64,000 bases of DNA from positions 320,001 through 384,000 of the forward strand of contig CAVPHD010000003.1 in the NCBI GenBank assembly GCA_963704165.1, written 5' to 3'. The position numbers were made by a program, and so were the translations under genes. Source of the DNA: an uncultured delta proteobacterium. Its GTDB lineage: Bacteria; Myxococcota_A; UBA9160; SZUA-336. The notes beneath the pieces are model-generated. The model was not told the DNA's origin. It saw only the letters and a list, made by a program, of their open reading frames with translations, and did not search any database. Of the stretch, positions 39,148 to 64,000 are shown one piece after another. The first letter of the stretch is position 1, and the number at the start of each line of letters is the position of its first letter.

Positions 39148-41520
39148 TCAGAGCGGGAACTCGCAGCGGTTCGCGACGCAGGTGAAGCCGGGCGGATAGC
39201 CCAGCGTCGCGCAGTTCTGCTGCGTGGTGCACTCGATCACGCAGATCGAGTCGCGGCACACGCGCCCCTGCTGGTAGCAGGCCTCCGCCTCGGGCTCCGA
39301 GCAGAAGCTGTCGTAGCAGCGCGCGCCCCCGATCGCGTCGTGGTAGCAGTACGCCTCGGAATCGTTGAACAGACGCTCACAGTCTGCGAGACAGACCCAG
39401 CTCGGGATCGGAGTCACGTAGCAGTGACCGGTTCCACCCCCGCCGAACGTGTCGTCGCCGTAGCACTCACCCTTGTCGCAGGGCCGCCCACCGTCGCACT
39501 CGCAGCCGGGTCCGCGGAACTCGTCGCAGTCGATGCACACACCGACCGTGCTGCTGGCGTTGAACTTGGTCTTGGCGCAGGAGAGCATGCTGTCGTCGTC
39601 GGGACAGTACGTGTCGATCAGGTAGTCGCCGTCGGGATCGGAACCCTCTCCGAATCCGGTCGTGTCCGCGCACTGACAGCCCTCGAGACCCGGCTGTCCG
39701 CAGTTCGGTGGTTGCGGCGTGGGCTGCGCCGGCGCGGGCCAGCTCCACATGATCCGCCTGTGCACGAGATCGCCGATCGTCGTGACGAAGTAGGCCCACG
39801 TGTCGTTGTTGCCGAACGCCTTCTCGCGGTGCTTGCAGTTCCCCTGCTGCAGATTCAGGTACGTCGCGAGCTCGTCGACGTTCGTCCGGCCGTAGAACTT
39901 CTTGGTCTCGGGGGTCGAGACGCAGGCGTTTCCGTGTGCGTGGAAGTGCGTGTCCGCGATCCCGCGATACAGGTTCGCGCCGTCCTTCGTGAAGTCGACG
40001 GAGCGATGGTGCATCAGCTCGTGGCTCACCGTGTGCGCTCGGGGCCAGTAGGTCAGCGGATTTCCATCGCCGTCCTCGAGCGCAAAGAACGGATCGCAGA
40101 GCGCGACGTCGCTCTTGACGATGTTGTGAGCGCTGGCGGCGGAGGTGAAGCAGACGTTGCCGGGGTCGGAGCCCTGGTCCGGGCAGTAGAGATCGATCGT
40201 CAGGCCGTTCGATTCGAGCGTCGTCATCATGTCCCAGAGCTTCCCCATGCCGTCCCGAATCGCCTCGAAGCGGTAGTCGGCGTAGTGGCCGAACCAGTAC
40301 TCGGGACTCGATTGCTCCGTGGTCGCGAGTCCGTTCTGCTTCAGGCCGGGTTGGCCCCAGATGAAGCTCCGGTAGTAGCTGTCCTGACTGGCGGCGTATT
40401 CGATCATCTGCCGCGCGCGCCAGGCGTTGTTGTGCGCGGAGAGCCAGCCGGTCAGGGCCAGCACGCAGCGAGCGGCGCTGCAGTCGGAGATCTCGGGGAA
40501 GTGGACCGCGGGCATTCCCGCCGCGATCGGGTGCGACTTGGTGTATTCGACGAACGCGATCTCGTCGCACGTCGTCGGTAGGTAGCCGAGCCCCATCCCG
40601 CCCTGCTGATCGAGCGGCGTGCCGCTTGCGGCATCGATCAACGTGACCGTCTCGACGCTGAAGAGCGGCGCGCCCGAGCCCGGGTCCGGAGCGATCTGGA
40701 ACGTCTTCGTCAGCCGCAGATCCTCGAGCGCGGAGGTCGGCGCCTCGAGCGTCACGTCGGGCGGCGGACCCGTCGGTCCCGCGGGCGGCGCATCGGAGGC
40801 CAGGATACGGACGAGGTACGGGCCGAGGAACACGTCCGCCCAGCGGCCCTCCGCCGTCACCACGATCGCGTCGTCGAACGGATGGACGATCTCCGCGTGG
40901 CTCGTCGTCGGCGTGCTCGCGTCGACGAAGTCGAAGCGAGCCCCGGAATTCGCGAGCGTCCCCCCGATCGCGGGCCGACGCGGACCCGGCCCCGGATCCT
41001 GCGCGAAGTCGTCGGTGCCGTAGACCAGCGGATCGTCGGGCGAGTAGCCGGGCGTCGGGGGATCGGGAAAGTGAGTCGTCGGTTCCTCCGCATCGTCCGG
41101 AGGAAGCACGCTCGGAAGCGGCCGCTGCGCGCAGCGCAGATCGCGCTTGGCGAGGTCGGCCGCGAGGTAGCGCCGCAGCGGAGACACGTCGGCCCCGTCG
41201 CAGACCGCGTCATCGGTCACGTCGCAGAGCGGTCCGCAGCTGCCGAGCGCGGCGTTGCAGCGCGCGAGCGTCACCCAGTCGAGCAGCGTGATCCGGCCAT
41301 CGGATTGCGCGTCGCCGCACTCGCAGAGATCTCCGTCGCCGTCCCCGTCGGCGTCCGCCTGCAGCGGGTCGGGAACGCTCGGACAGACGTCGCCGACGTC
41401 CTCGATCCCATCGCCGTCGGCGTCGGGGAAGCCCGCACCCTGCCCCCACGCACCGTGGGCGCCGAGCACGATGCCGGCACAGATCACGCCGACACAGATC
41501 TGTGTGCTGCGGATTCCCAT
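39148..41520 (-). CDS. Secreted Cys-rich zinc metallopeptidase (M35/aspzincin-like) with TSP3-like and dockerin-like N-terminal modules
   Basis: Signal peptide; DADGDG..D.CP...Q.DADGDG.GD.C; HELMH; GIAD; NNDTWAYF; Cys-rich tail. Confidence 0.72.
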   Translation of the reverse strand: MGIRSTQICVGVICAGIVLGAHGAWGQGAGFPDADGDGIEDVGDVCPSVPDPLQADADGDGDGDLCECGDAQSDGRITLLDWVTLARCNAALGSCGPLCDVTDDAVCDGADVSPLRRYLAADLAKRDLRCAQRPLPSVLPPDDAEEPTTHFPDPPTPGYSPDDPLVYGTDDFAQDPGPGPRRPAIGGTLANSGARFDFVDASTPTTSHAEIVHPFDDAIVVTAEGRWADVFLGPYLVRILASDAPPAGPTGPPPDVTLEAPTSALEDLRLTKTFQIAPDPGSGAPLFSVETVTLIDAASGTPLDQQGGMGLGYLPTTCDEIAFVEYTKSHPIAAGMPAVHFPEISDCSAARCVLALTGWLSAHNNAWRARQMIEYAASQDSYYRSFIWGQPGLKQNGLATTEQSSPEYWFGHYADYRFEAIRDGMGKLWDMMTTLESNGLTIDLYCPDQGSDPGNVCFTSAASAHNIVKSDVALCDPFFALEDGDGNPLTYWPRAHTVSHELMHHRSVDFTKDGANLYRGIADTHFHAHGNACVSTPETKKFYGRTNVDELATYLNLQQGNCKHREKAFGNNDTWAYFVTTIGDLVHRRIMWSWPAPAQPTPQPPNCGQPGLEGCQCADTTGFGEGSDPDGDYLIDTYCPDDDSMLSCAKTKFNASSTVGVCIDCDEFRGPGCECDGGRPCDKGECYGDDTFGGGGTGHCYVTPIPSWVCLADCERLFNDSEAYCYHDAIGGARCYDSFCSEPEAEACYQQGRVCRDSICVIECTTQQNCATLGYPPGFTCVANRCEFPL

Positions 41521-41625: not shown

Positions 41626-42447
41626 TCAATCCGAAAAATACTTCGAGAGGATCGCGCTGCATCGCTCGCGGATTTTCGCCTCCAGATAGTCCGGATCGAT
41701 CTGCGAGAGCAGGTCGAATTTCTCGGCAGCGGCATACACGTGCGGGGCCCGGGCGGGCAGCCGAGTCGCATCGATGTCGCAGAAGCGGGCGAGCGTCGAT
41801 GATTGATCGGCCAGATGCTCGGTGCGCAGCAGCAACAACCGCTCGGGCGGCACGTGACCGACGACGTTCTCGATCCGCTCGGCCCAGCTGTGGATGTAGT
41901 TCTGGAGCGGGTACAGGCCGCGATCCTGCAGACGGCGTTCGGCCTCCGGGTGTTCCCGATGCGGCGCGCCGTAGATCGCGGCCCGGAGGGCCGTCCATTG
42001 CGGGTTGGCGCGCCGCCCCAGGCTCTGGTTGAAGACGGAATCGAGCCAGCTGCGGATTTCGCGCAGCGTCAGGATGAACCTCGCCTCCGGGAACAGCGTC
42101 GGCAGCAGGTGAACGAATCGGCCGTGCAGGTGCGAGATGTCGGCTTCGAGCCAGAGTTGTTTGTCGCGTGCCTCGTACCAGTCCGCCACGGCGGCATCCG
42201 AGGCTCGGCCCTGCAGGCTCGCGAGGACGATGCCGATGTGGCGATCGGCATCGTACTCGTGAGCGGCGCGGTGGCGGTGCTCGAACATTGCCGCGAGCGA
42301 GTGCGTCCCGGTCTTCTGTCCGCCGACGCCGAACACCTGAAAACGCCGCGGTCGCCAATGACGGAAACCGGGAATCAACGGCAGCACGTGCAAGTTGTCT
42401 CGCTTGCGAGCCATGTACGGGCACTCACCCCAAGAACGTTCGTTCAA
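41626..42447 (-). CDS. Sulfotransferase family protein
   Basis: VFGVGGQKTGTHSL (5'-PSB loop) and FILTLREIRSWLDS (3'-PB motif). Confidence 0.85.
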   Translation of the reverse strand: MNERSWGECPYMARKRDNLHVLPLIPGFRHWRPRRFQVFGVGGQKTGTHSLAAMFEHRHRAAHEYDADRHIGIVLASLQGRASDAAVADWYEARDKQLWLEADISHLHGRFVHLLPTLFPEARFILTLREIRSWLDSVFNQSLGRRANPQWTALRAAIYGAPHREHPEAERRLQDRGLYPLQNYIHSWAERIENVVGHVPPERLLLLRTEHLADQSSTLARFCDIDATRLPARAPHVYAAAEKFDLLSQIDPDYLEAKIRERCSAILSKYFSD

Positions 42448-46341: not shown

Positions 46342-48178
46342 CTAGGCGAGTTCCAGACCCTTCAGCCCACCGTCGGCGCGCCAATCTTCCCAGAGCTTGA
46401 TGAATGCGACCGAGCCCGCACCGTAGAAGCCGTCCTGCGCGCTCCGCTCGGTGGGCTTCCCCTCGTTGTTGTAGTAGCCCGGCGTGCAGTTCATCAGGAA
46501 GTCACTGCCCATGCGCGAGAGGCCGATGATCGTCTGGATCCACTGGTTCTCCGCCTCTTCGGACGCCTCGATCGTGCGAACCTTGTTCTCTTCGCCCTTC
46601 TGGATCAGATACGCGATGTGCTTGGCCTGCTCGTTCAGCATGTGCGGATAGCTGGGCGTGAACCCCGATTGCGCGTTGCTCATGATGAAGCAGTTCGGGA
46701 AGCCGCGGACGTGCATGCCGTGGAATGAACGAACCCCGTTGGCCCACTTCTCGGACAGGTGCTGCCCGCCACGTCCGACGATGTCGTACCCGGCACGCCG
46801 CGTATACGATGTTCCGACCTCGAAGCCACTGGCGTAGATCAGGCAGTCGACTTCGTACTCCTTCCCGTCGACGACGACGCCCTTCTCCGTGATGCGATCC
46901 ACGCCCTGCCCCTTCGTATCGACGAGCGTGACGTTGGGACGGTTGAACGTCTCGAGATACTCGTTGTGGATGCAAGGACGTTTGCAGAACTGGCGGTAGT
47001 ACGGCTTCAGCGCGTCCGCGGTCGCCTCGTCCTTCACGATCGCGTCCACGCGCGCGCGGATCTGCTCCATCTTCTCGAAGTCCGCGAGCTCCATCTTCTT
47101 GACGAGTGACTCCGTCGAGACGTCGGGGCTCTGCTCGCTGCCGGACGCTGACGAGAAGCTTGCGGATGATGTCGGTCCAGCCGTCGTTCACCAGGTCCTC
47201 TTCCTGATATCCGCCGGAGACGAGGATGTTGAAGTTGTCCATGCGGTGCTGGTGCCAGCCGGGCTTCGAGGCTCTTCACCCATTCCGGGTCGGTCGGGGT
47301 GTTGTGCTTGACGTCCACCGACGACGGAGTCCGCTGGAACACGTACAGGTGCTCCGCGGCTTCGCCGACGTGCGGCACGACCTGCACGGCCGTCGCGCCG
47401 GTGCCGATGATGCCGACGCGCTTGCCGCGCAGGCCCGTCAGGTTCCCGCTCGGAGTCTCCGCCGCGTGTACGCGAAGTCCCAGCGGCAGGCGTGAAAGGC
47501 GTGCCCCTTGAAGTCGTCGATGCCCGGGAAGGCCCGGGCAGCTTCGGCCGGTTCAGCGGCCCGAGCGCCATCGCCACGTAGTGCGCCTTCATGCGATCGC
47601 CGCGGTCGGTCGAGATGATCCAGCGCGCGGCGGCGCTCGTCGTAGCGCAGCTCCGTGACGTTGGTCTGGAAGCAGACGTCCCGGTACAGGTCGTACTTCC
47701 GCGCGATGCGCTGGCTGTGCTCGAGGATCTCGGCGCCGGTCGCGTACTTCTGCGTCGGCATGTAGCCGGTCTCTTCGAGCAGCGGCAGGTAGATGTACGA
47801 CTCGATGTCGCAGGCGATGCCCGGATACCGGTTCCAGTACCAGGTGCCGCCGAAATCGCCGCAGCTGTCGATGATGCGGATGTCCTGGACGCCGGCCTCG
47901 CGCAGTCGCGCGCCGGTCAGGAGCCCTCCGAAGCCGCCGCCGATCAGGACGACCTCGACCTCGTCGACGAGCGGCTCGCGCGTGAAGCCCGGCTCGACGT
48001 ACGGGTCGTCGAGGAAGTGCGCGTACGCGCCCTTCACCTCCAGATACTGGGCGTTGCCGTCGCTGCGGAGCCTCTTGTCGCGCTCCTCGCGGTACTTGAG
48101 CCGCAGCGCCTCCGCGTTGAAGTCGTGCGCGACCTGCTCCGGGATGACTCGCGTCGGATCGCTGCTCTCGGTCGTCAT
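46342..48178 (-). CDS. Baeyer-Villiger monooxygenase; several frameshifts clustered at about 47260-47640
   Basis: GGGFGG, GGTWYWNRYPG, FKGHAFHACRWD fingerprint, IIGTGATAVQ, VFQRTP and DCLIYASGF. Confidence 0.9.
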
Positions 48179-49256: not shown

Positions 49257-50123
49257 ATGCTCGAGACTCGAGCCGAGTTCGAACGGACCACGCGCAAGGT
49301 CGCCACAATTGCCGCCTTGCTTGCAGCCATCACCTTCATCGGAGCGCCCGGCTTGGCGTTTGCCGCCAATCCCTGCGAAGTGACACCGACCGGTGGAACG
49401 GTGGAACTGCCGCCCGAGGGCTGTGAATACCTGAGCCCAGAGGAGGTGCATACGATCATCGCCGGGCTGCCGGCCGGAACGACGATCGTGCTCGCGCCGA
49501 TCCACCGCGACTTCCTCTGTCACGAGGGGGGCGCCGGCGTTCCGCCCGCTCAGTGCAGCGTCGTGGTTCCGCCGGGGTCCTGCGAAGCGCCCGGCGGCGC
49601 GCTGGGTGGCACCGTGGACTGCACGCCGTCCCAGGCCCAGTTTCAGCTGACCGGTACCGGCGAGCTCGCGGGATTCAATCGCGTGCTCTCGATTCCGCTC
49701 GAGATGGAAGTCCACGCCGCACCTCGAACCGTCGGCGCTCCGGTCCAGTCCTTCCCCACCGAGATGATGTCGCTGCAAGGAGAGATCTTCGGTGACCCCG
49801 ACTTCGATCTGCTCAGGATTCGGGCCGGTGGCGTCCACGGCATGCCGAGCCCGGGGCACACGACACTGACGCTGCTGCCGAACGGAAATTTCGCCGTCGA
49901 CAGCTTCTTCGACATCACCTACGAGATCGAGATGGTCGGTGCGCCGGGAGGCCCGCTGGCGGGCATGGCGGGCACGACGACCGGGACGCTGAAGATGGCG
50001 ACCGGCCTCTCGTCCGCGGTTCCCACCGTCCCCAAGCCCGGACTCGGGGTCGTCGGCCTGATTCTGCTCGCCGTCGGAGCGATGTTCATCCCGCGGCTTC
50101 GAAGGAAAATGGCCTCGACGTAG
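49257..50123 (+). CDS. Secreted/surface Cys-containing beta-rich protein with C-terminal IPTL/PEP-CTERM-like sorting tail (paralog 1)
   Basis: Signal peptide, six Cys and VDSFFDITY. Tail AVPTVPKPGLGVVGLILLAVGAMFIPRLRRK has the motif + TM + basic layout. Confidence 0.72.
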   Translation: MLETRAEFERTTRKVATIAALLAAITFIGAPGLAFAANPCEVTPTGGTVELPPEGCEYLSPEEVHTIIAGLPAGTTIVLAPIHRDFLCHEGGAGVPPAQCSVVVPPGSCEAPGGALGGTVDCTPSQAQFQLTGTGELAGFNRVLSIPLEMEVHAAPRTVGAPVQSFPTEMMSLQGEIFGDPDFDLLRIRAGGVHGMPSPGHTTLTLLPNGNFAVDSFFDITYEIEMVGAPGGPLAGMAGTTTGTLKMATGLSSAVPTVPKPGLGVVGLILLAVGAMFIPRLRRKMAST

Positions 50124-50210: not shown

Positions 50211-51026
50211 GTGATGCTGAAGCTCGGAGTTTCGTGGATCTGCGCGGCGATCGTTCTCGTCGCATCGGGCCTGGCCAGCGCCGGCCCCTGTGATGTGACT
50301 CCGAGCGGAGGAACGGTGCAGCTGCCGCCGGCGGGCTGCGAATACCTGAGTCCGGACGAGGTGCACAAGATCATCGACGGGCTGCCGCCCGGCACGACGA
50401 TCGAGCTTGCGCCGATTCACAAGGACTTCATCTGTCGCGAAGGATCGGCCTCGGTGTGCAGCATTCCCCTTCCGCCGGGAACCTGCGAAGCGCCGGGCGG
50501 CACGCTCGGCGGCAACATCGACTGCAGCGAGTCGGTCGCCGAATTCCACCTCACCGGCACGGGCGCACTCGCCGGTTACAGCCGTGTCGTCGCGATTCCG
50601 CTCGTCATGGAAGTCAACACCGCTCCGCGTGCACCTGGCGCTCCGGTGCAGGACTTCGACACCGAGATGATCGCGTTGCAGGGCCAGATCGGCGGCGACC
50701 CGGATTTCGATCTGCTCAGGGTCACCGCCGGCACGGGCTTCGGCATGCCGAGCCCGGGACACACGACGCTGACTCTGCTGCCGGGCGGCAACTACGCGGT
50801 CGACAGCTTCTTCGACATCACCTACCGGATCGACTTCATCGGTGCGCCGGGCGGCGCGCTCGCCGGGATGGCCGGTTCGACGACCGGGACGCTCAAGATG
50901 GCGACCGGGCTCTCGTCCGCCGTCCCGGTCGTTCCCGCGCCGGGACTTGGCGTCGTCGGCCTGATCCTGCTGGCGGTCGGAGCGATGTTCATCCCGCGGC
51001 TCCGGCGGAGAATGGCAAGGGCGTAG
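50211..51026 (+). CDS. Secreted/surface Cys-containing beta-rich protein with C-terminal sorting tail (paralog 2, tandem duplicate)
   Basis: Colinear with paralog 1 (PC.VTP.GGTV.LPP.GCEYLSP; GDPDFDLLR; GMPSPGHTTLTLLP; VDSFFDITY; TTGTLKMATGLSSAVP). AGGAG lies upstream. Confidence 0.72.
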   Translation: MMLKLGVSWICAAIVLVASGLASAGPCDVTPSGGTVQLPPAGCEYLSPDEVHKIIDGLPPGTTIELAPIHKDFICREGSASVCSIPLPPGTCEAPGGTLGGNIDCSESVAEFHLTGTGALAGYSRVVAIPLVMEVNTAPRAPGAPVQDFDTEMIALQGQIGGDPDFDLLRVTAGTGFGMPSPGHTTLTLLPGGNYAVDSFFDITYRIDFIGAPGGALAGMAGSTTGTLKMATGLSSAVPVVPAPGLGVVGLILLAVGAMFIPRLRRRMARA

Positions 51027-51229: not shown

Positions 51230-52228
51230 ATGATGGATTCGGTGTTGGATCAGCTGTCGTCCCTGATTCGGAGTCGCGCGCTCGGGATCGACTCGAGCGA
51301 GGTGGAGTTCGCGAAGCGCGGGTTCGTGCGCCGGGATCCGCTCGCGGTTTCGCGACTCGAGGGTGTCGCTCGGACCTTCGTCCTCGGCTATCGCCTGGCG
51401 CTCGCACAGCCGTCGCCCGATCTCCTCGCGCGGGAGCTCGACCGCGTGCCGTCGGAGCTCCGGGGATTCGCCTATGAAGGCGCGGGAATGGCGCTCGCGT
51501 TGCTCGACCGCCTGACGCCGTGGCGTCGCGATCGCCTTCACGCATTCCTCGCGGGTCCGGCGGATGCGCACGTCTACATGGTGCTGATCGGCGCCGGTTG
51601 GGCTTGGGCGCGACTCCGACGTCGCGTGGACGCGCTCCTGCGGCCGCTCGATCCGGTGCTCGGCTGGCTTGCCCTCGACGGCTACGGATTTCACGAGGGT
51701 TTCTTCCACACCGAACGAACCGTCGAGCGCCACGAACGGCCCGCGCGCCTGCGTGGCTACGCGCTGCGCGCCTTCGACGCCGGACTCGGCCGCTCCCTCT
51801 GGTTCGTCTGCTGCGCAGACCCGGACGCCGTCTCCGCTTGCATCGCGCGCTTCCCGTCCGAGCGCCACGGCGATCTGTGGAGCGGCATCGGTCTGGCCTG
51901 CTCGTACGCGGGTGGCGCGAATGCCGACGCGATCGATGCGCTGCTCGGGCTCGCGAGCGCTCACCGCGGGTCGCTCGCCCAGGGGGCGGCCTTCGCCGCC
52001 GAGGCGCGGCAGCGTGCGGGGATTCCGGCGGAACACACCCGATGCGCGGTCGAACGCATCACCCGCACGTCCGTCGAGCTCGCGGCCAAGATCTGTCACA
52101 GCGAGCTCTCGAAGGTCGAACGGCGCGCGCCGGACGCGAACGGCGACCCGAGGTTCGAAGAGTGGCGGCGCGGGATCCACGAGGCACTCGTGCGCGGCCT
52201 CCACGCTGACGAGGGAGCGCGAGCATGA
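51230..52228 (+). CDS. E3: Enediyne biosynthesis protein E3 (UnbL, DUF1702 family)
   Basis: RGFAYEGAGM, H.YM..IG.GWA.ARL, WLA.DGYGFHEGFF, D.GLGRSLWF, DLWSGIGLA..YAGG and LAQGAAF. First gene of the cassette. Confidence 0.92.
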   Translation: MMDSVLDQLSSLIRSRALGIDSSEVEFAKRGFVRRDPLAVSRLEGVARTFVLGYRLALAQPSPDLLARELDRVPSELRGFAYEGAGMALALLDRLTPWRRDRLHAFLAGPADAHVYMVLIGAGWAWARLRRRVDALLRPLDPVLGWLALDGYGFHEGFFHTERTVERHERPARLRGYALRAFDAGLGRSLWFVCCADPDAVSACIARFPSERHGDLWSGIGLACSYAGGANADAIDALLGLASAHRGSLAQGAAFAAEARQRAGIPAEHTRCAVERITRTSVELAAKICHSELSKVERRAPDANGDPRFEEWRRGIHEALVRGLHADEGARA

Positions 52229-54234
52229 GGGACCAGCCGTCGCCTGCACGTCGCCACGCGGCCCGACTGGTGGCCGTCGCGGTGGTCGTCGCCATCTTCT
52301 CCATCGTCGGCCTGCCCGAGCTCGAGCCGGCCGAGCGCGCGGCGTTGGCATCGCGATTCCGCTTCACGCCCGTAAAGCTCGAGGAGTGGCCCGAGGGCCC
52401 GTACCAGACGCGGCGCGCGGTGAACCCGAGTCTCGAGCGCCACTCCGGCTGGATCTCGGCGGTGGGCGCGGCGGTCGCGCTCGCCGACCTCGACGGCGAC
52501 GGACTGAGCAACGACGTGTGTCACGTCGATCCGCGCACCGATCTCGTCACGTTGTCGCCGGTGCCGGGAGGCGAGCCTCGCTATCCGATCGTCGCGCTCT
52601 CGGTCGGCGGCCTGCCCTACGACCGCGCGACGATGGCGCCGATGGGCTGCGTGCCGGGCGACTTCAACGAGGACGGGCGCACGGACCTGCTCGTGTACTA
52701 CTGGGGCCGCGCGCCGATCGCGTTCCTGAGCCGCGCCGCACCCGGCGATCCGCCGAGCGCAACCGGCTACCTTCCGCTCGAGCTGACCCAGAGCGGCGAG
52801 CGCTGGTTCACCAACGCCGCCACGTTTGCCGACATCGACGGCGACGGTCACGCGGACCTGTTGATCGGAAACTACTTCCAGGATGGCGCGCGCATCCTCG
52901 ACGCGAACGCCACGGCGCCGGACTCGATGCAGCACTCGATGTCGCGCGCCTACAACGGGGGCAAGAACCGCGTCTTCCTGTGGGCCGCGAAGGACTCGGG
53001 CAATGCCCACGAGCCCCGCGTGGCCTACCGCGAGGTGAACGGCGTCTTCGACGAGATCTCACTCCACGCCTGGACGCTCGCGATCGGCGCGGCCGACCTC
53101 GACGGTGACCTGCTCCCCGAGCTCTACTACGCCAACGACTTCGGCCCGGATCGCCTGTACCGAAACGTCTCGGGCCGGGGACGTCCGCGCTTCGCGCTGG
53201 TCGAGGGAACGCGCGGGATCAACACGCCCCGCTCGCGTGTGCTCGGCCGGGACTCCTTCAAGGGGATGGGCGTCGATTTCGCCGACGTCAACGACGACGG
53301 CCGACTCGACTTCTTCGTCAGCAACATCTCCGACGAGTACGCACTGCTCGAGAGTCACTTCCTGTTCGTGAGTCACGGTGACTGGGGCGACGAGGCCGAC
53401 GGCGTCGCGCCGTACGAAGACGATGGCGATGCCCTCGGCGTCGCGCGGAGCAGCTGGGGCTGGGACACGCGCTTCGGCGATTTCGACAACGACGGCGTGC
53501 CCGAGGCGCTGCAGGCGACGGGATTCGCGAAGGGCGAGACCGACCGCTGGCCCGAACTGCAGGAGCTCGCGACCGCGAACGACGAGCTGCTCGCGATCGC
53601 CGGCACCTGGCCACGCTTTCAGGCCGGCGACGACCTCTCGGGCCACGCTCCGAATCCGTTCTACGTGCGCGCCGCCGACGGGCGCTTCCACGACGTGGCC
53701 GCGGAGCTCGGGATCGACCAGCCACAGGTCACGCGCGGCATCGCCACCGCCGACGTCGACGGCGACGGAGACCTCGACTTCGCGATCGCGAACCAGTGGG
53801 AGCCCTCGCTCTTCTACCGGAACGAGCGCGGCGAGGCGGGCTCGGGATTCCTCGGCCTGCACCTGGTGCATCCGGTCGCGGCCGGTGCCAAGGAGGTTCG
53901 GGTGCAACGGGGCCACCCGCACGGAGGCACGTCTCCAGCGATCGGCGCCTCGGCCACCGTGCGGCGCGCGGACGGTCGCGTGCTCGTCGGTCAGGTCGAT
54001 GGCGGAAACGGCCATTCCGGCGTGCGCAGTCCCGAGCTCCACTTCGGCCTCGGAGATGCGGGCCAACACCCAAGCGCCGTCGAGGTCCGCTATCGCGATC
54101 GCTTCGGACGGCCGAATTCGATCGAGCTCATGCTCGAGCCGGGCTGGCACACGGTGGTCTTGCCCGATGCGCCGCCTCCCACGTGGCTGGCCAGCACGTC
54201 GGCATCGGCGCCGCGCGCGGGAGAAACGCGATGA
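52225..54234 (+). CDS. E4: Enediyne biosynthesis protein E4 (UnbV; CRTAC1/ASPIC-like with FG-GAP repeats)
   Basis: WISAVGAAVALADLDGDGL.ND, APMGCVPGDFNEDG, ANDFGPD, DSFKGMG, WPELQELA and VDGGNGHSG.RS. N-terminal TM/signal. Confidence 0.93.
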   Translation: MRDQPSPARRHAARLVAVAVVVAIFSIVGLPELEPAERAALASRFRFTPVKLEEWPEGPYQTRRAVNPSLERHSGWISAVGAAVALADLDGDGLSNDVCHVDPRTDLVTLSPVPGGEPRYPIVALSVGGLPYDRATMAPMGCVPGDFNEDGRTDLLVYYWGRAPIAFLSRAAPGDPPSATGYLPLELTQSGERWFTNAATFADIDGDGHADLLIGNYFQDGARILDANATAPDSMQHSMSRAYNGGKNRVFLWAAKDSGNAHEPRVAYREVNGVFDEISLHAWTLAIGAADLDGDLLPELYYANDFGPDRLYRNVSGRGRPRFALVEGTRGINTPRSRVLGRDSFKGMGVDFADVNDDGRLDFFVSNISDEYALLESHFLFVSHGDWGDEADGVAPYEDDGDALGVARSSWGWDTRFGDFDNDGVPEALQATGFAKGETDRWPELQELATANDELLAIAGTWPRFQAGDDLSGHAPNPFYVRAADGRFHDVAAELGIDQPQVTRGIATADVDGDGDLDFAIANQWEPSLFYRNERGEAGSGFLGLHLVHPVAAGAKEVRVQRGHPHGGTSPAIGASATVRRADGRVLVGQVDGGNGHSGVRSPELHFGLGDAGQHPSAVEVRYRDRFGRPNSIELMLEPGWHTVVLPDAPPPTWLASTSASAPRAGETR

Positions 54235-55235
54235 GCTCGGTCCTCTCGGACACGCCGGGGTTTCATCCCGCGACCCGGCCGGAGCGACCCGCGCCGACGC
54301 CGCTCCGCGCGAGCGACATCGACTGGGCGCAGCAGATCCGACTCGGTGGACTGCGCCGCTTCGCGTTCGCGATCACGCTCTTGAACGTCGTCGGTCACCT
54401 CTACCTCGGCTTCGAGACGTCCTGGCTGCACCCGTTGGCTGCACTCGCCACCGGCTACACGCTCGAGCTCCTGCTCGAGACCATCGACGCGCGGGCCAAG
54501 GGACGCGTGGCGCGTTATCGCATCGGTGGTCTCACGGGGTTCGGTGATTTCCTGCTCTCGGCGCACATCTCGTCGCTCGCCGTGTCGATGCTCCTCTACC
54601 CCAACGAGCACCTCGCCCCGGTGATCTTCGCGACCTCCGTCGCGATCGGGTCGAAAGTGGCGCTGCAGGTCGAGGTGGGCGGGCGCCTGCGGCACTTCAT
54701 GAACCCGTCGAACTTCGGGATCGCCGCCACGCTCTGGTTCTTCCCGTGGGTCGGCATCGCGCCGCCCTACCAGTTCACCGAGAACATCTCGGGGCCGTGG
54801 GACTGGGCGTTTCCGCTGCTGATCATCTTCACCGGCAGCTTCATCAACACACGCTTCACGCGCCGACTCCCGCTTCTTCTCGCCTGGCTCGGCGGCTTCG
54901 CCGCACAGGCGCTGCTGCGGCACTGGCTCTTCGATTCCGCGCTGGTTCCGTCGCTGGCGCCGATGACCGGTCTCGCGTTCCTGCTCTTCACCTTCTACAT
55001 GGTGACCGATCCGCCGACGACGCCGAGCTCGACGCGAAACCAGATCTTCTTCGGGCTCGCGACCGCCGCGACCTACGGCGTGCTGATGGCCTGCCATCTC
55101 GTGTTCGGGCTCTTCTTCTCGCTCGTCATCGTCTGCTTCGCGCGCGGGAGCTGGCATTTCCTCGCGTCGCTGCCGCGCGCGGCTCGGGCGCAGAACGACG
55201 ACTCGGACGCGGTTGCGGGCCCGCGGTCCATCTGA
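54231..55235 (+). CDS. E5: Enediyne biosynthesis membrane protein E5 (UnbU)
   Basis: LRRFA.AIT.LN..GH..LGFE, RHFMNPSNFGI, IAPPYQFTEN and YMVTDP.TTP. ATGA overlap with E4. Confidence 0.92.
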   Translation: MSSVLSDTPGFHPATRPERPAPTPLRASDIDWAQQIRLGGLRRFAFAITLLNVVGHLYLGFETSWLHPLAALATGYTLELLLETIDARAKGRVARYRIGGLTGFGDFLLSAHISSLAVSMLLYPNEHLAPVIFATSVAIGSKVALQVEVGGRLRHFMNPSNFGIAATLWFFPWVGIAPPYQFTENISGPWDWAFPLLIIFTGSFINTRFTRRLPLLLAWLGGFAAQALLRHWLFDSALVPSLAPMTGLAFLLFTFYMVTDPPTTPSSTRNQIFFGLATAATYGVLMACHLVFGLFFSLVIVCFARGSWHFLASLPRAARAQNDDSDAVAGPRSI

Positions 55236-55238
55236 AGC

Positions 55239-58200
55239 ATGCGCGAGCCCATCGCCATCGTTGGGCTCGCCTGCTCTTATCCCGACGCGAACTCCCCCGC
55301 TGAGCTCTTCGAGAACGTGCTCGCGGGTCGCCGTGCGTTCCGGCGGATTCCAGAAGAGCGGCTCTCACTGGCCGACTATGGCTCGACGGACGCCGGCGAC
55401 GTCGACCGCACCTACGTCACGCAGGCCGCGACGATCGAGGGCTACGAGTTCGACCGGGTGCGCTTCAAGATCGTCGGCAGCACCTATCGATCGGCGGATC
55501 TGACCCACTGGCTCGCGCTCGACGTGGCCGACCGCGCACTCACCGACGCCGGCTTCGCAGACGGCGACGGACTTCCCCGGGAGCGAACCGGCGTGATCCT
55601 GGGCAACACGCTGACGGGGGAGTTCTCGCGCGCGCAGGCGATGCGGCTGCGCTGGCCGTACGTGGAGCGTGTGCTCTCGGACACCCTCGGCGACCTCCTG
55701 CCCGACGCGTCCGCGCGCGCAAGCTGGCTCGCCGAGCTCGAGTCCCGCTACAAGGCGCCCTTCGAGGCCTTTGGTGACGAGAGCCTGGCGGGCGGACTCG
55801 CAAACACGATCGCGGGCCGCATCTGCAACTTCTTCGATCTGAAAGGCGGCGGATTCACCGTCGATGGCGCGTGCTCCTCGTCGCTGCTCGCCGTCGCCAA
55901 CGCGTGCGCGGCGCTCGCCGCGCGCGATCTCGACGTGGCGATCACGGGCGGCGTCGATCTCAGCCTCGACCCGTTCGAGCTGGTCGGCTTCGCGCGTGCG
56001 GGCGCGCTCGCTCGCGACGAGATGCGCGTGTACGACCGCCGCGCACAGGGCTTCTGGCCGGGCGAAGGCTGCGGTCTCCTGGTGCTGATGCGCGAACCCG
56101 ACGCGATCGAGCGGGGCCTGCGCGTCTACGCGCGCATCCGCGGCTGGGGCATCGCATCCGACGGGGCCGGCGGCATCTCGCGTCCCGAAGCGGCGGGGCA
56201 AGTGCTCGCGCTGCGCCGCGCGTACGCTAGCGCCGGCTTCGGACCCGAGACGGTCGCCTGCTTCGAGGGCCACGGAACCGGAACGGAAATCGGCGATGCG
56301 ACCGAGCTCGAGGCCCTGACGCAGCTGCTTCGCGAGAACGGCGCGGGTCGCGACGCGCCGGCTTCGATCGGATCGATCAAGGCGAACATCGGACACACGA
56401 AGGCCGCGTCGGGTGCGGCCGGACTGATCAAGGCCACGCTCGCGCTTCACCGGCAGTTGCTGCCTCCGATGCCCGGCTGCGAATCGCCCCACGCGCTGGT
56501 CGGAAGCGGCGCGCTGCTTCGCGTGCAGACGCTGGCTTCGCCCTGGCCACAGGACCGGCCGCTGCGTGCAGCCGTCAGCTCGATGGGCTTTGGCGGCATC
56601 AACACCCACGTCGTGCTCGACTCGCAGGCGAGTCGCCGCCGCCCCGCGCTTTCGCGTCGCGAGCGCGCGCTCCAGACGACGAAGCAGGACACCGAGCTGT
56701 GTTTGTTCGCCGAGGACTCGGCGCCGCAGCTGCGAGCTCGGGTCCAGGCGCTGCTTCCGCTCTCGCGCCGCATCTCGCAGGCCGAGCTCTCCGACCTCGC
56801 CGCGAGCTTGGCCGCAGAGGTCGCCGCCCGGCCGCCGGGCCCCCGCGCGCGAGCGGCCGTCGTGGCCTCGCGACCCGACGAGCTCACGACGCAGCTCGAG
56901 CGTCTGGTCGCGGCGATCGATCGCGCGACACAGAACGGCGACGCGATCTCGATCGAGCCGGAGCGCGGGGTCTTCTTCGGCGCTCGATCCGGAGATCCCC
57001 ACATCGGCTTGCTCTTTCCCGGCCAGGGCGCGCCCGTGCATCCGGACCTCGGCGCCCTGGCGCCGTGGCTCGACGGCGATCCGCTCGGGTCGCTGCACGC
57101 CGCGGCCATCGCTCCCGCGCACGAGGCCGGGCTCTTCGCCGGCTCCACCCCGATCGAGCGCGGAGAGATCGTCGACACCTCCCTCGCGCAGCCGGCGATC
57201 GTCGCGGCCTCCGTCGCGAGCGCGCTCATGCTCGAAGCACTCGGGGTCGTGGCCGAGGTCGCGGTGGGGCACAGCCTCGGCGAGATCGCCGCGCTCGCGT
57301 GGAGCGGATCGCTAACGCCCGGCGCTTCGGTTCGGCTCGCCGCCTCGCGCGGGCGGATCATGGCGGAGCTCGGTCACGACGACGGCGCGATGGCGAGCCT
57401 GGCCGTCGATCCAGACACGGCGCAGCGTCTGATCGCGACCGAGCCCTGCGTCATCGCCGCCCGGAACGGTCCCATTCGTACGGTCATCGCCGGCGATACC
57501 GCGGCCGTCTCGCGCGTGATCGAACGCGCGGCCGCGCAGCGCATCGCGGCGACTCGCCTCGCCGTGTCACACGCCTTCCACTCGCCTCACGTCGCGGACT
57601 GCGCGCCGGCTCTCGCGAAGGCGCTCTCTTCCGTTCCGTTCGAGGCGCCGCAACGGCGCGTCGTCTCCACGCGCACGGGCCTGCCGCTCGGCACCGACGC
57701 CGACCTCCGACTGCACCTCGTCCGGCAGGTGACCGAGCCGGTTCTCTTCTCGGACGCGGTGACGCGAGCGGCCGTCGGCCTCGACCTGTGGATCGAGGCG
57801 GGGCCGGGGCGAATGCTCGGCGCGCTCGCTTCCGATCTCGGCGACACACCGGTGATCCCGCTCGACAGCGGCGGCCCGACGTTTCGGGGTCTGCTCGCGG
57901 CCGTCGGCGCCGCGTTCGCTCTCGGCGCTCCGGTCGACACCGCGCGGCTCTTCGCCCACCGCGTCACCAAGCCCTTCGATCCCGAGCGGCCGCTCTCGTT
58001 CTTCTCGAACCCGTGCTGTGTGGATCGTGATCCGTCGACCGTGCCGGACGCCGCGCCAGGCCGCGCGCTTCCGGATGCAAACGATCGCAGCGTCGGGCAG
58101 AGCACGCTCGACGTGCTGCGCGGGCTCGTCGCTTCTCGCTGCGAGCTTCCCGTTTCCGCGATCGGCCCCGACGATCGCTTCCTGAGCGACCTGCACCTGA

Positions 58201-61084
58201 CCTCGATCGCGGTGAGCGAGCTCGCGTCCCGGGCCGCTCGCGAGCTGTCGCGTCCGCCGCTCGTCGCGCCGAACGAGTTCGCCGACGCCACCGTGGCCGA
58301 GCTCGCGCGCGCGATCGAGTCCGAGGAGCGAGAGCTCGTGATGGGATCTTTCGTCGCGGGTGTGGACGCGTGGGTGCGCGGCTTCGAGGTCGTCTCGGTC
58401 GCGCGCGCGCGGCCGCGCGACTCGGCGATCGGCGGGCGACGCGAGGGCCCATGGTCGTGGCGGACCTTCCTCGAACCCGGCGACGAGCTCGGCGAGGCGA
58501 TCGCGCACGCGCTGCGGAGCTTTGCGGGCAGCGACGGCGTGCTCGTCCACCTGCCGACGACGCCGGCGTTTCTCGCCCAGCTTCCCCGGCTGCTCGAAGC
58601 CGCGCGAGCCGCGAACGAGAGCCTCGACGCGCGCCACTTCGTGCTCGTCCATCACGGCGACGCGAGCGCGACGATCGCCCGCACGCTCCACCAGGAGGCG
58701 CGCAACCTCGCCAGCCGGGTGATCGAGCTGCCCCCGTTCGACATCGCCGACGCTGCGGCGTGGGTGCTCGCCGAGGTGCGCGCGGGGTCCGCCTGGAGCG
58801 AGGCTCGCTACGACGGCGACGGAAACCGCTTCGAGCGGCGCTTGCGTCCCCTCCCGCTCGGAGCGGCCGCAGAGACCGGACTTCCCGTCGGCGCGAACGA
58901 CGTGCTGCTCGTGAGTGGCGGCGGCAAGGGCATCGCGGCCGAATGCGCTCTTGCGCTCGCGCGCGAGAGCGGCTGCGCGCTCGGGCTGATCGGTCGCTCG
59001 CGACCGGAGAGCGACGGACGCGCTGCGGGAGAACCTCGAGCGCTTCCGGGCCGCCGGCGTCCGCGTCGCCTACGCAGCCGGCCGACGTCTGCGATGCGCG
59101 CGAGGTCGGCATCGCGTTGCGCGAGATCGAGACGCGACTCGGGCCCGTGCGCGGACTCGTGCACGCAGCCGGGCTCAATCGACCCGACGTGCTCGCGCTT
59201 CTCGAGATCGGCGATTTCCGCGACACGCTCGCACCGAAGCTCGACGGGCTCGAGAACCTGCTCTCGCAGATCGACACGCGCCGGCTGCGCTGCCTGGTGG
59301 GATTCGGCTCGATCATCGCCGAGCTCGGGCTGCCCGGCGAAGCCCACTACGCGCTCGCAAACGAAATGCTGACGCGGCGAATCGAGGACTTCGCATCCGC
59401 CCACCCGCACACCCGCTGCCTCTCGCTCGCCTGGTCGATCTGGTCCGGGGTGGGAATGGGGGAGAGGCTCGGCCGGGTCGAAACCCTGTCGGCCCGGAAC
59501 ATCTCGGCGATCACGCCCGACCAAGGGGTCGCCTGGCTCGCGAAGCTGCTGCGTCGGAGCGATGCCCCGGTGCGGACGGTGGTGTCGGGTCGGTTCGGAC
59601 ACCCGCCGACGCTGACACACGTCGAGCAGACGCTTCCGGCGTTGCGCTTCCTCGAACGCGTTCGCGAACACGTTCCGCGCGTCGAGCTCGTCGCCGACGC
59701 GGAGCTCTCGCTCGAGTCCGATCCCTATCTCGCCGACCACGTCTACCGAGGAGAGTCGATCGTGCCGGGCGTGATCGGGCTCGAGGCCTTCGCGCAGATC
59801 GCCGGGGCGCTCGCGAATCACGCGCGGCTGCCGACGTTCGAGGACGTCCGCTTCGAGCAGCCGATCGTGCTACCGCCCGAGGGAAAGCGAACCGTGCGCG
59901 TCGCGGCGCTGGCGTCGGCGGAACCGGACGACGACCGGATCCAGCTTCGGCTCCGCACGGACGGCAACGCGTACCAGGTCCAGCACATCTCGGCCGAGGT
60001 CGGCTTCGTCGATCGAGTCGAGATGATTCCGACCGCGCTCGCCCCCGCGCCGAAGCACGACGCTCCCGTCGTCCTCGAAGACGGAGCGACGTTGTACGGC
60101 GACCTCTTCTTCCACCGCGGCCGGTTCGCGCGCGTGATTCGCTATCGCGCGCTCCACAGCGACGGCTGCGTGGCCGAGATCGCCGGCCGGGACGAGCCGT
60201 TCTTCGGCGCGTTCCAGCCGGGACGACTCTGCCTGGGGGATCCGGGCGCGCGCGACGCGGCGATCCACGCGATCCAGGCCTGTGTACCCGATCGGGATCT
60301 CCTGCCGATCGGCGTGCGGAGAATCGTCGCCGGCCGGCTCGAGGGGCACGCGCTTCTGCGACTGCGCGCGGTCGAGCGCGGCCGGCACGGGGGTCGCTAC
60401 GAGTACGACCTCGAGATCTCGACTCCGGAAGGTGAGGTGCTCGAACGCTGGGAAGGCCTCGCGCTGCAGGAGGTCGCGGGCGCCGCGCGTCGCGAGATCT
60501 GGCCGGCAGCGTTGCTCGCGCCGCGACTCGAGGAGTACGCGAAGGCGCTCTGGCCGGATGCGAGGGTGCGCGCAGCCTTCCTGCCCGACTCGGCGGCCGC
60601 GACGAGCGAGCTTGCGCTCCATGCAGCCCGCGGCGTGCCCGGTCGGCTCCGCCATCGGCTCGACGGACGGCCGGAGATCGATGGAGCGGGCGCGGTCAGC
60701 GTCAGTCACTCGGCCGGTCACACACTCGCGGTCTCCGCCGATGTCGATCTCGCCTGCGACGTCGAGGTCGTGAGCGAGCGCAGCGCGGAAACCTGGCGGG
60801 ACATGCTCGGCTTGGAAAGCCATGCGGCGGCACGCCAGCTCGCGGATCGAAGCGAGGAACCCTTCGACGTCAGCGCGACGCGACTCTGGGGGGCGAGCGA
60901 GTGCGTGCGCAAGCTCGGACTTCCGCGCGAAACACCGATCACGCTCTCCACACCGCTCGGGAATGGCGCGCTGCGCCTCCACGTCGGGCGCACGGAGATG
61001 CTCAGCTTCTCGGCTCGGCTGGCGGGCGCGGATGCGGCACGGATCTTCAGTCTTCTGGTTCGGAGCGGCGATGCGAGCGTTTGA
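55239..61084 (+). CDS. pksE: Enediyne iterative type I polyketide synthase (KS-AT-ACP-KR-DH-PPTase); two +1 frameshifts at about 59016 and 59080 in the KR (probable sequencing errors)
   Basis: KS: DGACSSS, EGHGTGT, NIGHTKAA, GEFSRA..MRLRWPYV. AT: GHSLGE, HAFHS. ACP: SDLHLTSI. KR: SGGGKGI, GEAHYALAN. DH: YLADH...PGV.GLEA. PPTase: SVSH...ACDVE...W...ECVRK. Removing two G bases gives about 1947 aa. Confidence 0.95.
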
Positions 61085-61496
61085 ATACCGGCACGTCGTC
61101 GGCTTCGAGGAGACCAACGTGGTCGGAAACGTCTACTACGCCAACCACGTGCGCTGGCAGGGGCGGGTCCGCGAGCTCTTCCTGCGCGAGCGCGCGCCCG
61201 AGATCCTCGACCTGATCCGAGAGGGCCTCGCGCTCGTCACGCTGCGCGTGAGCTGCGAGTACTACCGCGAGCTCGCCGCCTTCGACGAGATCTGCATCCG
61301 AATGCGATTGGCCGATCTATCGCCCCATCGCATGAGCCTGCTCTTCGAGTACTGGCGGGTCGGAGAGAGCGGCGAGGAGCTGGCCGCGCGCGGCGAGCAG
61401 GATCTCGCGTGCATGTGGCGGCGCAACGGCAAGACCGAGCCCGAGCCGTGGCCGGATTCCCTGCGCGAAGCGCTGCGACCCTATGCGGAGTCGTAG
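61071..61496 (+). CDS. E10: Enediyne hot-dog-fold thioesterase E10
   Basis: MRAFEYRHVVGFEETNVVGNVYYANHVRWQGR.RELFL. Overlaps the pksE stop. Confidence 0.94.
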   Translation: MRAFEYRHVVGFEETNVVGNVYYANHVRWQGRVRELFLRERAPEILDLIREGLALVTLRVSCEYYRELAAFDEICIRMRLADLSPHRMSLLFEYWRVGESGEELAARGEQDLACMWRRNGKTEPEPWPDSLREALRPYAES

Positions 61497-61505
61497 CCCG
61501 ACTCC

Positions 61506-64000
61506 ATGACGTGGATCTCGCAGAGGGCGCTCGACCGGCCGCGCGCGACGCTGATCGTCTGCGCCGTGCTCACGCTGGCGCTCGGCATCGGCGCGCTGCG
61601 GCTGGAGCTGCGCACCGACGGTCACGCACTCACGCCGGAGGGGCACCCGGTCGTGATGCGCGATGCCGAGGACCGCGTTCGCTTTCGCGACGCGCGCAAG
61701 GCGATCCTCGTGGCGCTCGCGCGCTCTCCGGAGCAGACGCTCGCCACGCCGCACGGCTTCCGCTTTCTCCGCGAGCTCCACGTTCGACTCGAGAGACTCG
61801 ACGTGCTCCGGTCGAGCGGGCTCGTCTCGCTCGCGGGCTTGCCCCGACTCACACGCGACGGCGGAACCGTCTCGGTCGGAACCTATCTCGACGCCATTCC
61901 AGAAGCGGACGACGGCTTCGAGGCGTGGCTCGCGACGCTCCGGTCACGCCCCCTCGTCGATGGCCTGCTGCTCGCGCGCGACGGACAGAGCGCCCTCTTC
62001 GTGCTGCCGCTCTCGGAAGCCACGAGCGCGGCGGAGGCGATCGGGAGCCTCGAGGCCTTCGCGGCCGGAGCTTCGACCGACGAATTCGAGCTGCTGCTCG
62101 GCGGCCCGCTCGTCGCCGAGACGAACCTGGGCGAGCAGGTGCTCTCCGACCTCGCGCTGCTGGTTCCCGGGATGGTGGTCGTGATCGCGGTCCTGCTGTT
62201 CTCGATGCTCGGCAGTCCCGGTGGCGTCCTGATTCCGCTGATCGAGACGGCGGTCGTGCTGATCGCGACGTTCGGCGCGATGGGCTGGGCCGGCGCACCA
62301 ATCGCGCTGGTCTCGACGATCCTCCCGGTCGTGCTGATGGCGACCTGCATCACCGACGAGGTGTACCTGCTCGAGCGCTTCGGCGCCCAGACCGGAACGG
62401 GCTCGCCGCGCGCGCGCGTCGAGGCGTCGCTGCGCGAGGTCGGGCGCCCGATCGTGCTGACGTCCCTCACCACCGCACTCGGCTTCCTCTCGTTCACCAG
62501 CGCGTCGATCGGACCGCTGCGCGATTTCGGGCTCTTCGCCACCTTCGGAATCCTGCTCGCGATGCTGCTGAGCTTCACGCTGATCCCCGCCTTGATCGTG
62601 CTGCTGCCCGTGCGGATCTTCGAGCCCGCCTCGTGGCGGACCGGAACGATCGGACAGGCTCGACTCGGGGCGTTCGCGGCCGGGCGCCCGGTCGTCTGCT
62701 TCGCGCTCGCGGTCGCGGCGCTCGCGCTCACGGTCCCGGGCATCCGCTCACTTCGAGTCAGTGATTCGTGGGTCGAGAACTTCGATCCCGAGTCCGAGCT
62801 GGTACGGGCCGATCGGCAAATCAATCGCTCGTTCTGGGGAAGCTATCGGCTCGACGTCGTGCTCGAGGCGGAGCCCGGCCGCTTCCACGACCCGTCGGGT
62901 GTCGCGCTCGTCGAGCGCGTCTGCGCGGTTTCCGAGAACGCGCCCCACGTCGGAGGCTGCGAGAGCCCGTACGTAGCCCTCGAGGAGCTGGCCCGAGTGA
63001 TGGATGCCGCAACACCTCTCTCCGCGCTGACGGCGGATCGGCTCTGGGATCTGTTCACGTTGTCGGAGCTTTCCGAGGGCCGCGCGCTCGACCCTTCGAT
63101 CAGCGCCTCGGCCGACGCCGCGCGCGTCCGGCTCTACGTGCGAAGCCCCGACTACGGGATGGCCCGCGAGCTGATGGACCATCTGGAAGGGGAGCTCGAG
63201 CCGATCCTCTCCGACACGGGCGTGCGCCATCACCTCGGCGGTGAGCTCGCCGTCACCTCGGCGCTCGTCGAGTCCATCGTCTACGACCAGCTGCGCTCGA
63301 TCGGCTGGGCGCTCTTCACCATCGCGCTGCTTCTGCTCGCATTCACCCGCCGCTTCCGGGCGTTGCTCGCGGTGGTTCCCGTCAGCGCGGCGAGCCTCGG
63401 GCTCTTCGGCGTCATGGGACTCGCCGGGATCACCCTTGGTGTCGCGACGAGCATGTTCGCGAGTCTGGCGGTCGGCGTCGGCGTCGATTTCGGCATTCAC
63501 TTCCTCCACCGCTATGACCGCGAGCGGCTCGCGGGGAGTGACTTCGCAGCCGCGATCCGAGCGACCTTCGACGTCACGGGCCGCGCGCTGCTCTGGAACG
63601 CGATCGTGCTGGTCGCCGGCTTCAGCGTGCTGATCGCATCGAGCTTGAAGCCGAATCACAGCCTCGGACTGCTTCTCGTCGGCGCCACCCTGGCGTGCTA
63701 TGGGGCGACGCTGCTCGGGCTTCCGCTGCTCTTGCGGCTCGGTGCCCGCGGGGCTGCGAAGAAGGCCGCGGGGCTCGTCGCGTGCCTGTGGATCGCCTTC
63801 GCACCGACTCGAGCAGCGAACGCCGCGGATCTGCCATGTGCCGGCCCCCCCGATCCCGAAGCCACCGCGTTGATGGCGCGTCTCGAGCAGACGCGCCGGG
63901 GTCAGGCGCGCATCGCGCGCATGCAGATCGAGACGATCTACCCGAAAGGCCACCGGCTCTCGGCGAGCTTCGCCGGCAAGATCGACGCGAAGACACTCTG
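61506..64000 (+). CDS. MMPL/RND-family transporter with probable C-terminal LolA-like fusion; partial (runs off window, absent from ORF track)
   Basis: Manual translation from ATG 61506, sampled at several points, stays in frame: MTWISQRALDRPRATLIV..., LLLGGPLVAETNLG, SLTTALGFLSF, VGVGVDFGIHF. After the last TM it continues as ...ATALMARLEQTRRGQARIARMQIETIY. Confidence 0.85.
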   Translation, partial: MTWISQRALDRPRATLIVCAVLTLALGIGALRLELRTDGHALTPEGHPVVMRDAEDRVRFRDARKAILVALARSPEQTLATPHGFRFLRELHVRLERLDVLRSSGLVSLAGLPRLTRDGGTVSVGTYLDAIPEADDGFEAWLATLRSRPLVDGLLLARDGQSALFVLPLSEATSAAEAIGSLEAFAAGASTDEFELLLGGPLVAETNLGEQVLSDLALLVPGMVVVIAVLLFSMLGSPGGVLIPLIETAVVLIATFGAMGWAGAPIALVSTILPVVLMATCITDEVYLLERFGAQTGTGSPRARVEASLREVGRPIVLTSLTTALGFLSFTSASIGPLRDFGLFATFGILLAMLLSFTLIPALIVLLPVRIFEPASWRTGTIGQARLGAFAAGRPVVCFALAVAALALTVPGIRSLRVSDSWVENFDPESELVRADRQINRSFWGSYRLDVVLEAEPGRFHDPSGVALVERVCAVSENAPHVGGCESPYVALEELARVMDAATPLSALTADRLWDLFTLSELSEGRALDPSISASADAARVRLYVRSPDYGMARELMDHLEGELEPILSDTGVRHHLGGELAVTSALVESIVYDQLRSIGWALFTIALLLLAFTRRFRALLAVVPVSAASLGLFGVMGLAGITLGVATSMFASLAVGVGVDFGIHFLHRYDRERLAGSDFAAAIRATFDVTGRALLWNAIVLVAGFSVLIASSLKPNHSLGLLLVGATLACYGATLLGLPLLLRLGARGAAKKAAGLVACLWIAFAPTRAANAADLPCAGPPDPEATALMARLEQTRRGQARIARMQIETIYPKGHRLSASFAGKIDAKTL

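Follow-up and report, generated by a model that had tools for sequence, protein, structure and literature searches.

A five-gene enediyne-type polyketide cassette in a diderm bacterium forms a conserved block with predicted surface barrel genes and an MMPL-LolA exporter gene

What would an enediyne-type polyketide cassette make in a diderm bacterium, and where would the product go? The question is raised by a 64,000-nucleotide stretch from an uncultured delta proteobacterium (assembly GCA_963704165.1, contig CAVPHD010000003.1, positions 320,001 to 384,000; in our numbering G000:C3:320001-384000), hereafter the window, which carries at 51230-61496 five genes in the order E3-E4-E5-pksE-E10. The genome to which it belongs, G000, comprises 3.87 Mb in 12 contigs, with a completeness of 84% and a contamination of 1.55%. 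Here, our comparisons revealed that the conserved unit is larger than the cassette and consists of two barrel genes, the five cassette genes and the gene of an MMPL exporter with a fused LolA-like domain. We discuss whether this block directs the synthesis, export and surface retention of a linear polyene or polyyne.

The cassette is genuine, judging by the clustering of its five genes and the diagnostic layout of the polyketide synthase (PKS) PksE. All five genes lie on the plus strand, and their positions, order and junctions (ATGA overlaps at 52225 and 54231, a 3-nt gap and a 14-nt overlap) agree with those given in an earlier, sequence-only reading of the window. E3 (51230..52228) is of the UnbL type and matches DUF1702 (PF08012, E 1.8e-106), while the UnbV-type E4 (52225..54234) combines FG-GAP repeats with a UnbV_ASPIC domain and has an N-terminal hydrophobic segment, by which it is likely extracytoplasmic. 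E5 (54231..55235) is a UnbU-type membrane protein and a remote RnfD/NqrB relative (NQR2/RnfD, PF03116, E 3.5e-5, below the cut-off), 47-68% identical to the E5 proteins of 80 cassette loci. The iterative type I PKS encoded by pksE (55239..61084) contains the Pfam-supported ketosynthase (KS, Cys motif at 55863), acyltransferase (57267), acyl carrier protein (58182), ketoreductase (KR, 58917-59360) and dehydratase (59738), followed at 60698-60910 by a presumed phosphopantetheinyl transferase (PPTase). The motifs of all six domains were located, as the sequence-only reading had proposed; the PPTase has no Pfam match and was assigned by a motif set that we take to be characteristic of this domain. 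E10 (61071..61496) is a hot-dog thioesterase with enediyne thioesterases as its best PDB matches (4i4j, CalE7 and DynE7, E 2.7e-46 to 2e-34).

The unit to which the cassette belongs becomes visible in the congener G007, where the similarity to G000 starts in the genes U1 and U2 (49257..50123 and 50214..51026, both on the plus strand) and stops with the end of the exporter gene (61506..64703, plus strand, extending beyond the window's end at 64000). The exporter is an MMPL/RND protein of 1065 aa with 13 hydrophobic segments and a C-terminal LolA-like domain (PF17131, E 4.3e-14), in line with the lipid exporter that had been recognized downstream of the cassette. It is followed by a phosphotransferase gene and a PEP-CTERM lectin-like gene, neither of which is shared with the congener. 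Upstream, the sequence-only reading had seen no recognizable finishing enzymes, which holds for both flanks, but it missed U1 and U2, and with them part of the conserved block. Among 41 relatives, a U2 match was found in two, the same two that carry the cassette. In G127, which belongs to another family, one contig carries a U gene, E3 and E4, and another carries E4, E5, an open pksE, E10 and the MMPL-LolA gene. In G135, of the same class as G000, a U-U-MMPL-LolA arrangement, with an exporter 61% identical to that of the window, is located ~7 kb from the cassette, whose pksE also seems intact, and in G124 the MMPL-LolA gene adjoins E3.

The host of this block is a non-actinomycete diderm of a Myxococcota class, probably UBA9160, as judged from an LpxC gene in G000 and from the class it has in common with G135, which is the genome of cassette locus L007 and is labelled Myxococcota; the diderm host proposed earlier was thus borne out. 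In a FastTree phylogeny of 69 KS rows (built without G007, loci with too short a KS or characterized producers), the window's KS was sister to that of L007 (74% identity, support 99) and fell outside both actinomycete clades. GC content and GC at third codon positions showed no break across the locus, and the block is syntenic with G007 at 78% nucleotide identity, with synteny also in G127. A chimera with actinobacterial DNA, which had been named as a possible flaw, was ruled out by these three lines of evidence.

U1 and U2 are paralogues, 72-74% identical. U1 (288 aa) has a signal peptide, two hydrophobic segments and a predicted 8-stranded beta-barrel, and U2 (270 aa) is likewise a putative secreted, tail-anchored barrel; both have hydrophobic N- and C-termini and a basic tail. 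The tails of the U family, which has at least 1099 members, match IPTL-CTERM or midcut-by-XrtH in 11 of 49 members, while U2 itself matches no sorting model, and three exosortase matches (PF09721) were found in G000. U1 and U2 are predicted to be cell-anchored surface barrels. An AlphaFold2 model and VIA gave an 8-stranded antiparallel beta-barrel, a fold also seen in unrelated barrels. One exosortase gene of G000 precedes, by ~5.7 kb, a second type I PKS gene (2142 aa; G000:C10:17349-30317), with exopolysaccharide-type and acyltransferase-like genes in the surroundings. A different PEP-CTERM arrangement was seen in a Phycisphaeraceae locus (L019:984-6283), where a tandem array of eight small PEP-CTERM genes (170-203 aa) directly precedes E3 and shows no match to the trimmed barrel profiles.

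The barrels are likely remote relatives of DynF (DUF6073), a protein of enediyne pathways, by a link that is transitive only. The bridging protein L058 matches PF19550 (DUF6073) below the cut-off (E 1.4e-4), while none of 49 members of barrel profile A1 and none of 32 of A2 matched PF19550 at E≤0.5. Direct comparison of the U and A profiles gave a probability of 7.7%, a Foldseek search of the PDB with U2 returned no match at E≤0.001, and profiles A1 and A2 matched no PDB sequence at E≤10. An Atlas search with the homologue P0041 yielded only PEP-CTERM clusters below 0.9 and barrel folds. From the aligned ranges, U1 and U2 appear circularly permuted by one strand relative to DynF, and natural two-domain U proteins gave no confirmation of this permutation.

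The sequence-only reading had taken a cassette outside actinomycetes to be a rare setting, which did not hold. Scanning GTDB species genomes with E5 recovered at least 579 relatives, and among the best 80 of these, 66 loci are non-actinomycete, mostly from Acidobacteriota and Cyanobacteriota, and 14 are actinomycete. All five genes were present within the fetched flank of 54 of the 80, 41 of them non-actinomycete. Two publications had already recorded such cases: of 57 organisms with the cassette, 7 were not actinomycetales in 2015 (PMC4480864), and of 210 enediyne KSs from metagenomes, 160 did not belong to the soil actinobacterial lineage (PMC10308959). That a diderm can carry the cassette is in itself known. 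Its occurrence within the host class is patchy: of 225 genomes, 6 have DUF1702 and 4 a strong E5 match. Several loci departed from the standard arrangement. E4-E5 or E3-E4-E5(-E10) without an adjoining pksE occurred at L006:8034-10912, L078:7027-11423 and L071:4737-8573; a PksE orthologue was not found in the genome of L006 (G041), and L078 has a barrel and MMPL gene and, after E10, an FG-GAP protein where no PKS was seen. Tandem copies of E3 occur in several cassettes of acidobacteria and actinomycetes (L037:5915-7979, L047:5901-7958, L054:6081-8141 and Streptomyces loci). A family of 188-aa membrane proteins with no Pfam match and no match in G000 follows the cassettes at L008:8946-9512 and 11 other loci, from cyanobacteria and three actinomycete loci. 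The contig of L011, titled Crocinitomicaceae, is suggested to be misbinned because its KS is nearly identical to those of Microcystis. DUF1702 genes without other cassette genes in the 30-35 kb fetched were found in G445 (C1:2313880-2314851) and G112 (C9:175655-176602), and DUF1702 alone is therefore no marker of the cassette.

Barrel and exporter genes frequently accompany the non-actinomycete cassettes. In the flanks fetched, barrels accompanied 24 of the 66 non-actinomycete loci versus none of the 14 actinomycete loci, and MMPL genes 16 of 66 versus none of 14; these counts are descriptive only, since the same loci had served to train profiles A and B. Of 39 loci with a length of 19 kb or more, 24 had a barrel or MMPL gene. 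In the host class, all four E5-positive genomes have a U gene and a close LolA-type match. Grouped by E3, U was present in 4 of 6 versus 13 of 219 class genomes (Fisher p 3e-4, a value that overstates the association because kin are not independent). Strong E3 matches were found in five of 301 sampled cyanobacteria (at most eight candidates scored per genome), three of which also had a strong barrel match, two of these three being training genomes, and a single weak barrel match was found among 291 cyanobacteria without DUF1702. The independent cyanobacterium, G302, carries A-, U- and B-type barrels consecutively between E4 and E5. Our literature search found no link of enediyne-PKS cassettes to PEP-CTERM barrels, DUF6073 relatives or MMPL-LolA proteins, and no literature on DUF6073; it did not extend to supplements, Rudolf 2016 or Gui 2024, which could mention them.

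In the KR region, the pksE frame of the window is interrupted by two single-base insertions, near 59016 and 59076 on the plus strand, relative to G007. Over 206 kb, G000 differs from G007 by 38 isolated 1-nt insertions and 3 deletions, with frame switches in 18 of 113 orthologous genes, including ribonucleotide reductase, MutS, FtsH and IspH (recognized from sequence). By hand calculation, this background predicts ~1.1 insertions in pksE and a chance of ~0.29 for two or more, so two insertions are unremarkable, although their spacing of only 60 nt calls for caution. The insertions match the error profile of the assembly and are likely assembly errors. The pksE frame is open over 1993 codons in G127 and is broken at a different site in G007.

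Taken together, the account that we find best, and that could equally turn out to be wrong, is that the locus makes a linear polyene or polyyne, not a ring-closed enediyne, which is exported and held by surface-anchored DynF-like barrels. The full cassette reportedly yields iodinated polyenes and polyynes, a diiodotetrayne among them, and E3, E4 and E5 would turn a heptaene into such products. The heptaene itself, pentadecaheptaene, is released by PksE and the E10-type thioesterase in orthologous systems, as established in PMC9992847. E4 and E5 would then act at the inner membrane or in the periplasm, MMPL-LolA would take the hydrophobic product across the periplasm, and exosortase-processed U1 and U2, by analogy to the palmitate bound by DynF, may bind the product at the cell surface or process it further there. 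A broader proposal, which we regard as tentative and would not expect to hold in full, is a separate diderm enediyne-PKS branch in several phyla, in which MMPL-LolA exports a polyyne and secreted, exosortase-anchored members of the DynF superfamily capture or mature it into a cell-surface polyyne chromoprotein; the DynF of actinomycete anthraquinone-enediyne clusters would then be a cytoplasmic offshoot.

Several observations weigh against a linear product held by DynF-like barrels. Direct profile comparisons of U with DynF, and of A with DynF, were not significant, outer-membrane barrels score as high as DynF or higher, and DynF co-expressed with the heptaene pathway retained and co-purified no heptaene (PMC8725005). 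U occurs in 13 of 221 E5-negative genomes of the class. G140, which is 94% complete, carries U-MMPL-LolA while orthologues of E3, E4, E5 and PksE were not found in it, G108 has U-MMPL-LolA and no cassette match, and the five genomes tested yielded neither a PksE nor an E4 orthologue. Metagenomic U loci had cassette genes in 4 of 72 cases (one being the organism of G007) and the exporter in two more; of the 9 loci flanked by 8 kb or more on each side, only one had the cassette (L109). Conversely, four of five cassette genomes without a nearby barrel had no profile A2 match anywhere. Barrel and exporter are thus frequent, not obligatory, partners, because both cassette-free U/MMPL-LolA loci and barrel-free cassettes exist. 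These loci, the size of the U family and the separate U-MMPL-LolA operon ~7 kb from the cassette in G135 would also suit a different explanation, in which barrel and MMPL-LolA form an independent envelope module for another lipid and the cassette is a passenger that makes a free polyene or polyyne (a pigment, antioxidant or antimicrobial). We consider this explanation improbable, though one to be taken seriously, since cyanobacterial cassettes without MMPL contain barrels of three subtypes between E4 and E5, and the barrel family links to an enediyne-pathway protein; the cassette-free modules could also be remnants of cassette loss, which is apparently under way in G007. There, pksE has an open KR but has lost 13 nt at the KS active site, where 7-nt direct repeats flank the deletion (G007:C32 near 19162, L086), with E10 open and the rest of the block intact. 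This deletion, a further point against a functioning pathway, is likely real and that pksE copy likely dead; L109, 99.98% identical to G007, has the same deletion near 15518, and the two may rest on the same reads. Whether the locus is simply decaying in the genus, so that nothing is made now, must be asked, as neither congener that has pksE shows an unbroken copy, with two closely spaced insertions in G000 and the deletion in G007, and E5 is missing in 10 of 11 other congeners. We judge this to be unlikely, given the insertion-rich error profile of G000, the different sites of the two breaks, the open frames of all other block genes and dN/dS (the ratio of nonsynonymous to synonymous rates) values well below 1 between G000 and G007 (0.15-0.36 for cassette segments, E10 excluded, and the exporter; 0.40 for U2).

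The sequence-only reading had offered a new enediyne or an envelope product of the polyene/polyyne kind. The latter proved the better option, and the former the weaker, because G000 yielded no homologues of accessory genes from two actinomycete clusters. For this comparison, open reading frames from 100 kb of a nine-membered-type Streptomyces cluster (G536) and from 40 kb of a DynF-bearing cluster (G547) served as tblastn queries. The DDE_5, HxlR, DUF5987, GMC, CMD, MDMPI and PF00960 genes of G536 had no match in G000 at 1e-10, and its P450, flavin reductase, epoxide hydrolase and ammonia-lyase genes gave unlinked matches only, of 24-44% identity. Neither additional nine-membered core genes, which we take to be E1, E2, E6-E11 and M, nor a neocarzinostatin-family apoprotein (tblastn with a PF00960-positive protein) was found. 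The DynF orthologue of G547 (E≤1), the one such cluster used, and its 450-aa upstream neighbour likewise had no match, so that a DynF/Sgd15 orthologue with companion tailoring genes, as in anthraquinone-fused clusters, was not found. These genes are described as not found rather than absent because G000 is 84% complete. A true enediyne, with DynF-like barrels performing early post-cassette chemistry or serving as a new kind of apoprotein and the other enzymes unlinked or unassembled, is the least probable of the explanations considered. It would accommodate the presence of all five defining genes, the incompleteness of G000 and the essential early role of the DynF orthologue Sgd15 in sungeidine synthesis (PMC8725005), but it is at odds with the missing matches, with a conserved block that has no space for extra genes and with the secretion predicted for the barrels, as the DynF orthologue has no signal peptide on inspection. 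Methyltrisulfide, sugar and CalC-type resistance genes, as in calicheamicin-type clusters, do not lie in the conserved block.

Elsewhere in the window, a search for a sigma-70 promoter upstream of the locus found none. Three minus-strand genes before U1 were noted. That at 39148-41520, outside the conserved block, encodes a secreted cysteine-rich protein of 790 aa with a weak M35-type metallopeptidase match (E 2.4e-4, below the cut-off). A sulfotransferase-domain gene follows at 41626-42447, ~9 kb upstream of E3 and also outside the block common with G007. A flavin monooxygenase-like gene (46342-48178, recognized from sequence) is split over several frames, likely another assembly error.

The sharp boundaries of the locus, its seven gene types and the intact, same-order orthologue in G127 make it a small complete system, free of dozens of tailoring genes, for testing what the cassette finally makes and which ligand a DynF-like barrel holds. 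Compared with the minimal cassettes of C-1027, neocarzinostatin, calicheamicin and dynemicin, as described in PMC4480864 and PMC9992847, the five genes, their order and the PksE layout and motifs are alike, and E10 is closest to the SgcE10-type, CalE7 and DynE7 structures. The window differs from these actinomycete cassettes in its diderm host, in a KS outside the actinomycete clades, in the E1/E2/E6-E11-type, tailoring and apoprotein homologues not found in G000, and in its flanking secreted barrels and MMPL-LolA, both absent from the 14 actinomycete loci. The enediyne-type PKS clusters of Haliangium, Cyanothece and Herpetosiphon (PMC4480864) and of Deltaproteobacteria, Cyanobacteria and others (PMC10308959) likewise place a cassette without known product in a diderm; the consulted parts of both papers treat cassette or KS distribution and do not mention barrels or MMPL-LolA. 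With neocarzinostatin-family apoproteins (PF00960), U1 and U2 share small size, secretion, beta structure and linkage to a cassette, and may have an analogous carrier role, yet they are a different family and predicted to be cell-anchored. DynF/Sgd15 (DUF6073, PDB 6UBL), from anthraquinone-fused enediyne clusters, binds a C16 chain, palmitate, in its barrel; U1 and U2 differ from it in their signal peptide and exosortase-type tail, in the lack of a direct sequence match and in a family that occurs in many cassette-free genomes.

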